Below, one piece after another: positions 28,127 through 43,790 of a stretch of 64,000 nucleotides of DNA (within the stretch, counting starts at the first letter, position 1; the number at the start of each line of letters is the position of its first letter). Origin of the DNA: Leucoraja ocellata (taxonomy: Eukaryota); NCBI GenBank assembly GCA_036785375.1, contig JAWMAR010000255.1:1550001-1614000 (forward strand), read 5' to 3'. A program made the translations under genes and the position numbers. The notes below the pieces were generated by a model. The model was not told the origin of the DNA, did no database searches, and saw nothing but the letters and a program-made list of their open reading frames with translations.

Positions 28127-28232
28127 ACTAATCAATTAAATAATATCCACAATTAAATTGAAACGGTGAACTTCAGAATAACTAATTTTGAGCTATATTG
28201 GCATTGGGAACACCCAGTTATTAAACTTTACA

Positions 28233-28436
28233 CAAAAATGCTGGAGAAACTCAGCTGGTGCAGCAGCATTTATGGAGTGAAGGAAATAGGCGACGTTTCG
28301 GGCCGAAACCCTTCTCTGGTTTCGGCCTGAAACGTCGCCTATTTCCTTCGCTCCATAGATGCTGCTGCACCCACTGAGTTTCTCCAGCATTTTTGTGTAC
28401 CTTCGATCTTCCAGCATCTGCAGTTCCTTCTTGAAC
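28233..28436 (+). mobile_element. Penelope-like inverted-repeat element with an unpaired 3' tail
   Basis: Inverted arms of about 85 bp meet at the hammerhead remnant, followed by a ~35-nt tail. 13-bp TSD attaaactttaca at 28220-28232 and 28437-28449. Confidence 0.8.
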
Positions 28437-29591
28437 ATTAAACTTTACATCACTGAATACTACAGAGTTGCCACAAAAACAAATAATTCATTGACATGTT
28501 ACTCTCTGTGCACTTACATTTGATTCCATTCTTCAAAAACATGATGTAATAGGAGATAGTTAATTGAAGACTTCATTGTTTTTAATTTGTCAATTTCCCC
28601 AACTATAAATAGATATCAACATGTGATTGTTCAATGTAACATTACAGATCAATGAATATACAACTCTGAAGAAAATCTAAAACTGAAATGGCAATTATCA
28701 TTTCAGAGATTAATAAATATTCTAAAGAGCTGACAGCATCAACCCTGTTTTCTCTGAATTTGTAAAAACTATTGTTCTGCACTATGTTCTGTTCTTTTTG
28801 CAGTACCTGTTATATTTGTGTACAGTTTAATTGTTGTCATGCTTGGTGTGATTTGCACATTAAAAAGGTTTTCACTGTATCTCAGTACACATGATAATAA
28901 TAAGCAGATACCAATGCCAGTAGTGAGGCATGACCAAAAACAACACATTTATTTTGGAAAATAATGGAAAAGCACTTTAAATTAACTCTGGACAGCACTA
29001 CTTTAGAACCATTAAGTACCAATGAAATGGAGTTGCCAATGTAACACTAGAAACACAGCAGCTAATTGGTCTGCAGCAAGATCCTATAAGCAGCAAGGTG
29101 ACACAATCAGATAACCAGTTTTCAGGGATTTAGGTTGAGCATTAACAATTAAGTCCAGGACACCAAGTCAAAATAGTACCATCAACATGCAAAGAGCAGA
29201 GGATTGCATCTAACAGCCAGCACGCTCCACCAGCATCACACTCTCTCTGCCATACCCCCCTCCTGCAGTGCGATATTCCCACAACATTGCCTGGGTCCAT
29301 TTAGTCCACCATGTTACTGCCCCTGCGTAGCTCCACTTTCCTCTCCCAATCCACAGAGTGCCACACTCCCTCAGTGCTGATTCTCTGCATTAACAATGTT
29401 ATGCCTGCATGGCCACACTCCATCAAGACCAAAGAGCTTAGAGCTTGTCCACTCCGACCCCCTCCCCTTTCCCCAAAATGCAATGGGTTTTCCAGGAAGA
29501 CACTCCTGCACTCCCACGCTATCACACGCAATGCAAAGTTCCAACGCCATTGTCACCCCGTGCAACCGCCTGATAGTACCATGATCGCTAG

Positions 29592-29848
29592 ATAGATAAA
29601 AATGCTGGAGAAACTCAGCGGGTGAGGCAGCATCTATGGAGCGAAGGAAATAGGTGGCGTTTCGGGTTGTGACCCTTCTTCAGGCTGATGTGAGGGTGGG
29701 AAGAAGGGAGGCGGAGACAGTGGGCTGTGAGAGAGCTCGACCCAAAACGTCACCTATTCCTTCGCTCCATAGATGCTGCCTCACCCGCTGAGTTTCTCCA
29801 GCATTTTTATCTACCTTCGATTTTTCCAGCATCTGCAGTTCCTTCTTA
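29592..29848. mobile_element. Penelope-like inverted-repeat element with a spacer and tail
   Basis: Inverted arms. The minus strand reads CTGAAGAagggtcacaacccGAAAcgcc (core at 29677-29683, cleavage triplet mutated). Same tail as the other copies. Confidence 0.75.
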
Positions 29849-30089
29849 CGTACCATCCCTCCTCGCTACCCATCCTGCAGGGGTCACCCAATGCCCCGCC
29901 AGCAGGGAACACCCCCTCCCCCTTGAAATGCTGTGGAGGGGAGGGATTGAAGGGTTTCGGCCCGAAACGTTGCCTACTTCCTTCGCTCCATAGATGCAGC
30001 ATTTGTGTGTACCACCGAGGGATACCTCATCTCCTGCAGTGCCAACCTCCCTGCTTGGCTCTCTCTATAGTGCCACACTCCTGCCTCGC

Positions 30090-35106: not shown

Positions 35107-37307
35107 TCTTCTTCGAGTCCGTTGCAATCTCAGATGTCGTTCTGCCAGTATCTGATGCAGGTCACAGCTGGTCGGGTCGGTTCAGCCAGGTCCTGGGGGC
35201 TGCACTGGGGGGCATTGTCACACTCCAGTAGGTGGGACATTGTCTGTTCTGCTCCACAGCTGCATGTGTCTTATGCCTGGTAGTTCCATGCTTTCATAAG
35301 TGCTTTGCACCTCCCCTGCTCCACTCGTAATCAATCTGTTGAGGGTCTTCCAGGTTGGCCATGAGAGGTCGTGCCCGCTGGCGAGGCATTCAGTCAGAGT
35401 GATTCCTCTCTCCATCCAGTCGTGGGCTCGTGTGTTGAGCTGGTTCCATTCATCTTTCCAGATGTTGGTCCTTGCTGTTTCTTTGGTTGTCTGGAGAGGT
35501 GGGACTGTCTGCAAGAAACTGGCTCTAGATTTCAGTCGGGGTGGAGGTGCTGTGTGTCCGTGCAGGGGGTGCCTGGTATCGATCTCCTGTGCTCTCCGCT
35601 CGTCTTGGGCGACGATGGATCATCTGATATGGGGGGGGGGGGGGCAATACCAGCTAGGGCATAGAGGCATGGGACTGGCGTTGTCTTTATGCATCCCGTG
35701 ATAATGCGGCAGGTGTCGTTCAGGGCTGTGTCAACCAGTTTGGTGTGGTGGGAGCGGCTCCAGCTTGAGCACGCGTATTCAGCTGTGGAGAAGCACAGGG
35801 CTAGGGCAGTTGCACGGATGGTTGGTGGATCAGCGCCCCACTTTGAGTTTAACAGTTTGCGCAGGATGTTGTTGCGAGTGTTGACCTTGGCTTTGGTGTT
35901 CTGAAGGTGGGTTTTGAAAGAGAGTGTCCTGTCGAGTGTGACTCCGAGGTACACAGGGTGGAAGTGGTTGGAGAGTTTGTGGCCATCCCATGAGACGCTC
36001 AGTTGTTTTCCTGCATCTCGATTTTTAAGATGGAAGCTGCATAGTTGGGTTTTTGATGGGTTGGGTTTCAGGTGGTTGTTATTGTAGTAGGTTGTCATCT
36101 CTTGGAGGGCGTTTACCAGGACAGACTCGATCTTCTGGAAGTTCTCCTGTTGGGTGGTGATGCAGAGGTCATCAGCATAGATGAAGCGGCGGCATTGTGG
36201 GGGAAGTGGTTGGTTGTTGGTGTAGATGTTGAAGAGGAGGGGGGCCAGTACGCTGCCTTGTGGTAGGCCATTCTTTTGGGTTTTCCATTTGCTCTTCTTG
36301 TCGTTTAGTTGAACGAAGAAGCGCCTGTTGTTGAGAAGGCTTTTGATGACTTGGCACAGGTCGAGGTCACCAGTCATGTCAAAACGTTTCCTGATCATGG
36401 TGCGGTGCTGGACAGTGTCGTAGGCAGCGGTGAGATCTATGAAAGCTGCTCCGGTGATGAGTTTGCACTCAAAACCGTCCTCAATGTGTTGGGTGAGGTT
36501 CAGTAGCTGCCCAGCACAGGAGCGGCCAGGGCAGAAGCCAGCTTGATCTTTAGTAAGCTTGGAGTCTATAAGTGGCATAAGGCGTTGGAGTAGTAGCCTC
36601 TCGTAGAGCTTGTAGGTGATGCAGAGGAGGGAAATAGGTCTGTAGCTCTTTGGGGATGATGGGTCCTTTCCAGGTTTGGGAATTGCGCCAGTCTTGGCCT
36701 TTCTCCATGCAGGTGGGGTTGTTTTCTGTGCCATGCATGAGTTCAGCATGGCTAGGAACCAGGTCTTTGCTTTATGTCCAAGGTGCTGTATAATTTCCGT
36801 CAGTATATCATCGATTCCTGCTGCTTTCCCAGGTTTCAGCATGCTCATTGCAGCTTCCAGTTCTTCTAGGTCGAAGGGCTTGGTGAGGGCGCTGGCTGGT
36901 TGTAGGCGGTCTGTTACCGCTGTCCGGCGGTATTCTCCTGTGGGTCTGCACCGATTTTGGCTACGACCGTTTGCCACCAGCTGTGCTGCAACTGAGTTTG
37001 CTGTGACTGTTGTGAGCGTGGGCGGTGTGGTATGGTCTTCACCGAGGCGGTGGATTGTGGCCAATGCCTTCCTGCTGTTATTGGTCATGTTGGTGTTTTC
37101 TATCAACTCCTTCCAGACTTGCCATCGGTCCTCCCCGACTGTGTTTAACAGGATCTCTCCGAGTTCCATGGTGGTGGAGGAGAAAGGGTCCTCGTGATAT
37201 GCCCTGTGGTAGGCTATCAGTAGATCGCTGGATGTTTCCGACAGCCCGGGGATGTACTCGGTCTGGCATCCTCTTGGTATATGTCGCCTGGCTGATCTTT
37301 TCAGCAG

Positions 37308-37524
37308 GTACACAAAATTACTGGAGAAACTCAGCGGGTGCAGCAGCATCTATGGAGCGAAGGAAATAGGCAACGTTTCGGGCCGAAACCCTTCAGTCTG
37401 AAGAAGGGTTTCGGCCCGAAACGTCGCCTATTTTCTTCGCTCCATAGATGCTGCTGCACCCGCTGAGTTTCTCCAGTAATTTTGTGTACCTTCGATCTTC
37501 CAGCATCTGCAGTTCCTTCTTGAC
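37308..37524 (+). mobile_element. Penelope-like inverted-repeat element inserted into the Vingi ORF
   Basis: Arms at about 37307-37393 and 37402-37490, tail at 37491-37523. TSD cttttcagcag at 37297-37307 and 37525-37535. Confidence 0.85.
37396..37428 (+). ncRNA. Minimal type I hammerhead ribozyme motif
   Basis: gt CUGAAGA a GGG uuucgg CCC GAAA C GUC gc. Both core boxes are present, with a 3-bp stem II, a palindromic ACGU stem III and a GUC triplet ending at 37425. Confidence 0.65.
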
Positions 37525-38284
37525 CTTTTCAGCAGTTCTGTGAACATGGTATAGTTGTTGGGGTGTGATGGAATACTGGGGATGGAGTCTTCGATCTCCT
37601 GTTGGAATGACAGCTAGTCGGCCTTCCGCAGATTGAACCTTCTGCGGAAGAGGACAGTTGTTGTTTGGAGAGCGGATCGGATGGTTATGGTGATTGGCCG
37701 GTGTTGCGTATGGGGGATAGGGTCCAGGACCTCTTTCACAGCTCTGGATGATAGTCCGCTGCTCACATAAACAAGGTCTGGGTTATGTCCTCGTTTCCAT
37801 CTGGCATGTGGAAAGATTTTGGCAGTTTGGCGTCATGGATCAGGGTCAGGTGTTTCGACTCAAGCCAGGTTTTGACTTCATCTCCATCTTGATTGTTCAC
37901 TTCATAGCCCCACAATGAGCTATGGGCATTGAAGTCCCCAATGCTAATGTGGTATTTCCTCTTGCATCTGTCTGGCAGTTCAGAGTGGAGGAACGGACTT
38001 TGGGGGGGTTTATACACTGATGTGACAGAGATGTTTGGGAGGGCAACTGTGATGGTTTCCATTTGCCCTTCGGTGGTGTGGGTGCAGACCTCTTCGATCG
38101 CAAGGTTTGGTCTGCTGAATACAGCTGACCCATACTGTCTGTGTCGGATCTCGACCACCAGCTTCATTCCAGGGATGGCTGGTCGGTGTTGTGTAGGGCC
38201 GGTGTGGGTTTCCTGCATGCACACTATGTCGAAGCGTTTGGCCGCTGTCGCTAGTATGTCTGCCTTGCATCTGGATAAGCCTTC

Positions 38285-38777
38285 AATATAACCAATGAAC
38301 TGGCCTCAACTACCTTTTGTGGCAGAGAGTTCCAGAGATTCACCACTCTCTGTGTGAAAATTTTTTTTCTCATCTCGGTCTTAAAGGATTTCCCCTCTAT
38401 CCTTAAGCTGTGACCGCTTGTCCTGGACTTCCCCAACATCGGGAACAATCTTCCTGCATCTAGCCTGTCCAACCCCTTAAGAATTTTGTAAGTTTCTATA
38501 AGATCCCCCCTCAATCTCCTAAATTCTAGCGAGTACAAGCCGAGTCTATCCAGTCTTTCTTCATATGAAAGTCCTGACATCCCAGGAATCAGTCTGGTGA
38601 ACCTTCTCTGCACTCCCTCTATGGCAATAATGTCCATCCTCAGATTTGGAGACCAAAACTGTACGCAATACTCCAGGTGTGGTCTCACCAAGACCCTGTA
38701 CAACTGCAGTAGAACCTCCCTGCTCCTATACTCAAATCCTTTTGCTATGAATTCTAACATACCATTCACTTTCTTCA
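38285..38777 (-). mobile_element. CR1 LINE body (5'-truncated), contiguous with 34936-35106
   Basis: [22 protein letters not shown]...[13 protein letters not shown]...FTQRVVNLWNSLP. Confidence 0.92.
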
Positions 38778-41970: not shown

Positions 41971-43790
41971 CCAATGTGATACCCATCAAATTGTCAAACA
42001 GAAAATCTGTCTTTTTCTAGATGTCACACGTACAAATGTCTTCAAGAGGGCTAATAATTGCTATTTGTGCTGTCAATTTAAAGAAAGCAATCAATCACAT
42101 AAAGGAAATGTCTGGCACAGAAGAAGGCTATTCGGCCCAGATATTGCACGCTTGGATTCATTCTCCCCACAAGTCTCTTCTCATCTAAATTCAACTCGCC
42201 TTCTTCCTCCCTATTGTTGTTTTCGCTTCCCCCTAAATGTATTTGTGTTTTTGTCGCATGTTATTTGTTGCAGCGAGTTCTGGGTTTATCACAATCAATG
42301 ACCCGTAACTAAAAGTGCCAGTTATCCCTAATGTACTCGAGGAGGTAGAAGCACTACAACTGAACAAAACAACAACAACAAAACAGTCAATTCCTTAATG
42401 CGGCATGTTAGGGTTTTATGATAATAACTGATAATACTTAAGTGTTGAAAGCAGATTACGTAATAAACATAAAAGACGAATATTTTTAAATGCTGAATAT
42501 TTCTCTTGCAGCGCCTCCTTTGCCTTGGGGGTAAATACGATCTAAAAACTGCGGTGGGGATTGGAGAGAAGGCGAGCTCTTGAGCCAGCAAACCACGCCA
42601 GTCGTTTTTTATTTAATTTCCGTCAGTTTTGTTTTCCTTTTCGTGTCGTGTTGAGATCTGGATCCACGGAAGTCCCCGATGATTTCGGTGATCCCAGCTA
42701 TTCGGTTTGACCCGATGTGAAATAAAATTCGGTTTTACACTAAACTAGAAAGCAGCTTCATAATTAAAACGTAGTTCTATAGTCGAACAGTCTGCCGTGA
42801 AGTATTGAACGTCACACTCAATGGCAATTGTACAAAAGTACTGGATTGCAAATAATCTTATAGCTGCGCTGTGAATCACCCTTCTCGCGCTGCAAGCTGT
42901 ACAAATAGCAGGTTCTATTATGAAAACTCTTTTTACTGCTTAATACATTTGGTTTAAATCCCTGCACTGTTCTCTGAAGTTAAAAAAAAAAACAAGAAAA
43001 GAAAATAGAGAAAATGAGCTTGCGGTTAAGTATAGAATTGTTCTATTAATTCTCCAATATTGATTAAATGCGATAACATCAGCAATTCCTGTTTCGATAA
43101 TGTGGAATATATCTTCTTCAGTTTCGGCGTGGAAAATACATTATTTGCAGGAGTTATCGTAGGAGTTAGCTTTACAAATTCAAGTCCGACAATATGTTTC
43201 TAGATTAGAACTGGCATGGGAAAGAAAATTAGGAAGATGTGTATAATATGATTTACTGGGACCGATATGGTTCTCGTAACAAGCATGTATTTGAATGCGG
43301 CTTGGTCGTCTATTTGTGAAGAATGCGATCTCGTATATCCAGATTCAGACAAGCAAAGCAAGGCGAAAAGAATTAAACTCTCTTTTTCAAAAATCGACAC
43401 TGTGAGTTTGCCTGGTTACTGAAGCAAAGAAAAAAAGCGTTATGCCCACACCTTTCCAGTTTATTTCTGGCCCGGAGTTTTTCCAACACCAATCATCAAA
43501 TACAATGAAAGCTCGGCCGGAGAATGACCGAGACATTACTGGAAATAATAGCCATACAAAGCAACTGAGCGGGGGTTGCCGCTAAAGTCTGTCATCTGAA
43601 ATCGCAGTTCGGCAGTCCACTTAAATCCATGTGGACGTTTTGGCACACAAAAAAGAGGAACTCTCAAGAACAAAACAAAAAGAAAGTGCACATTATCAGA
43701 CAGATCATTAAAATAGTCTTCTTTCCTCGGCTAAATTTAGAAAACCATCTCACATTTCTTACATAGAAAGGATACCGTTCTAATATGTGT

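Follow-up and report, generated by a model that had tools for sequence, protein, structure and literature searches.

The hammerhead motif in the window, that is, the whole stretch of 64,000 nucleotides of Leucoraja ocellata DNA that was analysed, is very probably a minimal hammerhead ribozyme that starts the terminal repeat (pLTR) of a Penelope-like element (PLE), likely of the Neptune clade, and the palindrome that contains it is likely to be a dead-end insertion by the reverse transcriptase (RT) and GIY-YIG endonuclease (EN) of this element. A preliminary description had placed an intact minimal hammerhead motif at 37396..37428; its letters and pairings are as claimed (Table 1), and its likeness to the minimal type I hammerheads of PLEs is supported. 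The copy displays CUGANGA, GAAA and U16.1-H17, together with G10.1-C11.1, an extra nucleotide after A9 and palindromic 15.2-16.2, and a fourth pair, U37409.G37414, extends stem II to 4 bp (GGGU/GCCC) with a UUCG loop; the same pair is U-A in the tcacaa, tctcaa and tctcga variants. A loose motif pattern matched the window three times, against 0.51 matches expected by chance; the third match (43091-43121), which lies outside the family and is without UH, was rejected. Regarding the earlier statement that other copies keep GGG/CCC and vary the loop, the loop variants were indeed seen, but the tctcaa copy in the window has lost its GAAA, the core of the tcacaa copy, which reads GAAACGCC, is not intact, and among the 20 family arms in the window core and stem II are intact solely in the copy described here. 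The Rfam hammerhead models gave no match in the window at E ≤ 1, and the eight window matches of Rfam at this threshold are all miRNA or snoRNA look-alikes, with no ribozyme among them. The companion HDV SINE that had also been proposed was not recovered, since there was no Rfam HDV-type match at E ≤ 1 and a rough descriptor of our own, which is a weak test, returned 0.

Table 1. Features of the hammerhead motif, of the insertion that carries it and of related palindromes in the window
Feature	Position	Strand	Basis or remark
Minimal type I hammerhead motif, whole	37396..37427	+	sequence; pattern matches; agrees with the min-HHR of PMC4209133 as described there
Stem I, 2 bp	G37396-C37427 and U37397.G37426	+	sequence
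CUGAAGA box	37398-37404	+	sequence
Unpaired extra A	37405	+	sequence
Stem II GGG / CCC	37406-08 / 37415-17	+	sequence
GAAA box	37418-21	+	sequence
Palindromic ACGT	37421-24	+	sequence
GTC triplet	37423-25	+	predicted cut between 37425 and 37426
Left target-site duplication, 15 nt, 1 mismatch to right copy	37293..37307	.	last 2 nt common with arm end
Left inverted arm, short pLTR copy, tail-less, no CUGAAGA box	37306..37394	-	spans ~+7 to +96 (C of CUGA = 0)
TCAGTCT initiator-like site; junction of both arms (TC microhomology)	37393..37399	+	sequence; copy 5'-end pile-up
pLTR body 3' of hammerhead, common to both arms	37428..37491	+	arm comparison
Tail of ~32 nt, right arm only; long copies run on into the element's 5' body	37492..37523	+	
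Right target-site duplication	37521..37535	.	first 3 nt common with tail end
Host LINE fragment interrupted by the insertion	35532..38305	-	APE endonuclease 37763-38305, RT 35532-37349
Second head-to-head palindrome, same subfamily	28229..28439	.	one arm with tail, no intact core
Third palindrome, sister subfamily	29590..29850	.	left arm extends ~70 nt into PLE 3' UTR

The identity of the parent element can be read from longer copies elsewhere in the genome. At six TTTYGG loci that were translated or aligned, the motif lies 3' of a GIY-YIG frame ending in EFSQFC*, and the end of this frame, as read in same-subfamily copies among 30 motif-match loci, is ...CNRKKCNTC...LIYIGETKR...EFSQFC*. Upstream of GIY-YIG are an RT, marked by DKG and YIDD, and a CxxxxCxxC linker; the arrangement of EN+ PLEs, an RT followed by a C-terminal GIY-YIG in one ORF, is present, though in broken copies, and no intact parent ORF was found among the copies read, which contain frameshifts and stops. 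The Pfam matches of the parent frame are weak and below the cut-off (RVT_1, E 0.006; GIY-YIG, E 0.0008-0.003), and the nearest named proteins, at 56-60% identity, are shark proteins (whale shark, zebra shark, bamboo shark), with RT and GIY-YIG both present in those scanned, which points to a cartilaginous-fish host. A CX2-5CxxC zinc-finger linker between RT and EN, present here as CNRKKCNTC, is described as a mark of Neptune that is also found in Nematis (Craig 2021, PMC8557442). Judging by these motifs, the parent is likely to be a Neptune-clade PLE. Its start codon is likely to lie past the tail. Since the motif lies behind the EN frame and its sequence continues as the 5' body, it can be assigned to the pLTR of an EN+ PLE. 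The suggestion of a second ribozyme-based mobile RNA system, or of a retrozyme, is not supported; what the palindrome carries is the pLTR motif of an autonomous RT/GIY-YIG element.

Copies of greater length also display the arrangements of this pLTR. Locus L065 (contig C100) contains a near-full copy of ~4.07 kb with broken frames and a duplication of ~9-10 nt; the final 52 nt of its 3' tail recur at its 5' end. At locus L066 the 5' end bears a truncated copy in inverted orientation, and only this end has the tail. Of 30 loci selected through the 5' body, which include several duplicate pairs, 15 show a partial tandem in which UTR/EN precedes. Another eight begin between -9 and +2 (the C of CUGA being 0) and seven within the tail, whereas the cut site is the start of none.

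The window copy itself is 213 nt long and inserted head-to-head, and a target duplication of 15 nt flanks it. Its left and right arms (37306-37394 and 37403-37491, 89 nt each) show 98% complementarity. The left arm begins inside the hammerhead; the intact core is found on the right arm only. Folded as RNA, the whole palindromic unit is predicted to form one long hairpin (-179.5 kcal/mol) in which the motif is buried. Both the single core and this fold weigh against activity. An empty-site joint (37292>37521, 228 nt skipped) was observed in one DNA contig and three RNA reads, the source of which is probably other copies of the host LINE. This host LINE, which we take to be RTE-like, has RVT_1 (E 2.5e-35) and Exo_endo_phos_2 (E 1.1e-10) domains. 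The inverted arm provides an in-frame ATG (MLLHPLSFSSNFVY...) joined to the host LINE RT in a 605-aa open frame at 35532-37349 (-), which is probably a product of chance. The window also contains a direct duplication of ~14 kb (1-14.4 kb and 49.6-64 kb).

The family is extremely abundant. A tight motif pattern has at least 51,166 exact matches in the 3.44-Gb assembly (reversed control, 0), and a tail-only profile applied to 100 stretches of 10 kb at fixed offsets detected 382 arms (mean 3.82, SE 0.31; reversed control over the first 60 stretches, 0), from which a total of 1.1-1.5 million arms was extrapolated; both figures bear out the expectation of a very large hammerhead-bearing family. All 11 core letters are kept in 53 of 292 near-complete arms, and a structure descriptor found 21 cases in 600 kb (control, 0), corresponding to about 120,000 genome-wide. 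A search with a divergent stem II pattern returned 1,104 matches (control, 5), and nearly all of the 30 that were read are variants of the same PLE family; a separate count for a subfamily gave 9,535. Mirror-image locus pairs with 97-99% identity are found on one contig, C1 (for example L002/L030, L003/L029 and L007/L026), and further such pairs on contigs C10, C69, C294, C451 and C550. Both haplotypes may have been assembled, and because of such partial duplication of the assembly absolute counts are possibly inflated, with densities unaffected.

Two variants of the family stand somewhat apart. A pLTR palindrome with an A.A mismatch in stem II occurs at L160, L161, L163, L165, L169, L171-L177, L179-L181, L183 and L187; it sits inside another repeat, with common flanks, and has been amplified as cargo, for which reason it provides no test of selection. 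At L128:7673-8095 tail fragments are repeated every 66 nt in a short tandem array, possibly a nascent satellite.

The arrangement and the ends of the arms are informative about how the copies were made. Among 108 close arm pairs in 1 Mb sampled, the head-to-head orientation prevails (70), followed by tandem (26) and tail-to-tail (12). Head-to-head pairs place two hammerheads on opposite strands and give no dimer in cis, and neither copy ends nor RNA reads gave any sign of cleavage. The 66 palindromes scored comprise 43 with exactly one long arm, one with two and 22 with none, and a target duplication of at least 7 nt was detected in 11 of them by a strict search. As for the 5' ends of the arms, 83 of 291 map to -6 to -1, whereas the background per 6 nt is 20.7 within the motif and 4 in the upstream part. 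In this pooled peak, arms with a UTR type missing from the references would be placed at -6 to -1 artificially; h12, h96, h131 and h174, four reference rows that are not UTR-linked, were left out. In the young subfamily alone the peak is weaker (5/26), and 6/26 arms begin at +10. Its nested genome counts are 50,130 (from +4), 35,965 (from -2) and 14,551 (from -9), and the retention of 0.72 and then 0.40 indicates a steeper loss across TCAGT, with UTR variation also lowering the -9 count. TCAGTCT fits the initiator consensus YYANWYY, and a transcript start is predicted near 37395. Among the young arms at +10, several palindromes (L120, L127, L199 and L202) are centred on the GTTTCGG/CCGAAAC inverted repeat of the motif itself, which suggests fold-back of cDNA at this hairpin.

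The simplest mechanism that may be proposed for these copies is as follows. Transcripts would start at the initiator-like TCAGT just before CUGA, and two positions within the RNA, ~96-100 and 128-132 nt downstream, would serve for priming by the RT, in a manner comparable to Poseidon of Anolis. As such an RNA would start in the pLTR and be primed in the tail, the resulting cDNA would be only 100-135 nt long. The template would be uncut RNA, copied from the tail sites to the 5' end, and the mirror arm would arise from cDNA fold-back or from priming at a second nick. Any cleavage would require two RNAs paired through ACGU, probably together with the protein of the element, and would serve the read-through transcripts of the parent rather than the stumps, most copies of which are likely to be dead by-products.

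The same data bear on a rather different origin, in which the short units would constitute a non-autonomous family of their own, retrozyme- or SINE-like, excised by the hammerhead, possibly circularised and mobilised in trans by the PLE protein. An EN match lies within 500 nt of only 18 of 191 arms (three being set aside as neighbours), the 5' ends are clustered and a few short tandem arrays exist, such as that of L128 with its 66-nt steps, all of which would favour such a family, and animal retrozymes are derived from pLTRs according to a recent preprint (Li 2026, 10.64898/2026.07.22.740005). Cut monomers, however, would be expected to start at +28, and only 13 of the 291 5' ends fall around the cut site (+26 to +31), which is below background. 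Moreover, palindrome centres differ between copies, tandems are in the minority (26/108), and the sole amplified palindrome with common flanks is the A.A variant carried inside another repeat. A separate non-autonomous family is for these reasons very unlikely, and insertion by the machinery of the PLE itself is the preferred explanation.

This explanation is compatible with a motif that is catalytically idle here and kept as an internal promoter and RT-binding part of the RNA, since the two readings differ solely in catalysis; an idle motif is considered somewhat unlikely. When four to seven subfamily consensuses, grouped by tail sequence alone, are compared, the core varies at 1 of 11 positions and the tail at 21-23 of 66. 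The core is only marginally better conserved, a difference that is not significant (p 0.08-0.11) and is compatible with idleness; it neither confirms nor removes the objection, foreseen in the preliminary description, that the core might be no more conserved than its flanks. Mismatches per copy amount to 27/524 in the core and 231/2,853 in the tail, as raw counts. On the other hand, every core position fits the hammerhead consensus, and the two changes at paired positions between subfamilies, from U.G to U-A in stem I and in stem II, both keep the pairing, whereas the stem II loop is variable at 3-4 of its 4 positions. Both of these changes are one-sided, with no two-sided change between the consensuses. 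A metagenome scan for distant relatives returned 0.

Predicted folding favours the idle motif. The pair probability of stem II is at most 0.07 in the window arm (0.1-1.0 in other subfamilies), and the hammerhead dimer fold, at -13.3 kcal/mol, is about 11 kcal/mol above the MFE of -24.2 kcal/mol. A promoter role would also agree with the initiator and with ACGT near +27 to +30, the place of a downstream element, and with the internal promoter of D. virilis Penelope, which is described as containing RGACGTGY (PMC2377424). Insertion in vitro was reported to be unaffected by HHR mutants (PMC11167929), but homologous motifs do cleave in vitro in two reports (PMC4209133; PMC11167929), which speaks against an idle motif.

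In two RNA runs, 7,064 of 7,335,232 and 13,549 of 12,895,792 reads map to L131:900-2300; 91-95% of these reads continue into unlike sequence, and the two strands are about equally represented on the arm. No pile-up of read starts or ends was listed on L131:900-2300 or at the window locus. The libraries are of fragmented polyA RNA, in which small circles are not visible, and their source organisms may not be close relatives of the species studied here; given the fragmentation and the swamping by passenger copies, the lack of a pile-up weighs little. Among the sequencing runs listed as holding the sequence, none is on record as RNA. An intron ending at the polypyrimidine-CAG before the motif finds no support, with no splice joint there among the best-supported joints listed. 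In run X21, reads over L131:900-1360 and 1511-1604 are mostly biased 1.5-5-fold towards the first mate on the + strand, the bias being about even at 1135-1181 and absent on the arm; given a stranded library, it may reflect antisense RNA.

Taken together, a known PLE feature is extended to a cartilaginous-fish genome at an unusual scale, and the only fresh points are this scale and the statistics of the 5' ends. Owing to the high copy number, insertion ends become readable statistically, and they point to a template of uncut RNA starting just before the ribozyme, which fits the lone in vitro study and bears on the purpose of PLE hammerheads. No account of this PLE family in cartilaginous fish was found in the literature searched, and Repbase/Dfam probably hold the element. 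A much bolder proposal, which is regarded as quite improbable, is that the hammerhead load of this genome ranks among the densest in vertebrates, with 15-35 intact motifs per Mb (~50,000-120,000), that promoter and RT sites ~130 nt apart have produced short cDNAs by the million, and that, with the motif in ~0.1% of polyA reads, the protein of the element, when expressed, could license dimers in trans that cut many host transcripts. If passenger motifs did cut host RNAs, the family would be of greater importance.

The pLTR min-HHRs of metazoan PLEs, as described by Cervera and De la Pena (2014, PMC4209133), resemble the present motif in having no true helix III, a palindromic 15.2-16.2, an extra nucleotide between 9 and 10.1 and G10.1-C11.1, and also in occurring mostly as single truncated copies, with opposite-strand pairs 100-700 bp apart. 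Stems II and I have 4 and 2 bp here, compared with 7-8 and 4-5 bp in the schistosome motifs of that study, which gives ~4,000 minimal motifs for coelacanth and ~9,000 for X. tropicalis, against at least 51,166 here. EN+ PLE units, in the accounts of Arkhipova (2013, PMC3846280) and Craig (2021, PMC8557442), share with this family the partial tandems, the head-to-head inverted truncated copy, a tail of 30-40 bp on one end and the variable TSD, as well as an Inr-like pLTR site (PMC3846280) and the zinc-finger linker between RT and EN (PMC8557442); unlike those published units, the present one is cut down to two pLTR stumps. Against the ~1.1-1.5 million arms here, the Naiads with the highest copy numbers reach tens of thousands (PMC8557442), although the counting methods differ. 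In a study of the Anolis carolinensis element Poseidon (Frangieh 2024, PMC11167929), the tail was reported to be defined by two internal sites at which the RT starts, and uncleaved RNA to be the template, with no reads ending at the cut site, all of which is similar to the situation proposed here; Poseidon differs in belonging to another clade and in having its ORF start inside stem II, whereas here it likely lies past the tail. Non-LTR retrozymes (Cervera 2020, PMC7229834; 10.64898/2026.07.22.740005) are likewise described as pLTR-related carriers of type I hammerheads with very high copy numbers, reaching 126,247 canonical motifs in axolotl, and one chondrichthyan with retrozymes is included in the preprint (10.64898/2026.07.22.740005). 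In these sources, however, retrozymes form head-to-tail tandems of 170-400 nt with canonical hammerheads and circular RNAs. Head-to-tail units are not the rule here, where the window copy is head-to-head and tandems are 26 of the 108 close pairs; unlike retrozymes, this PLE family is dispersed, solo or head-to-head, and has a minimal core.
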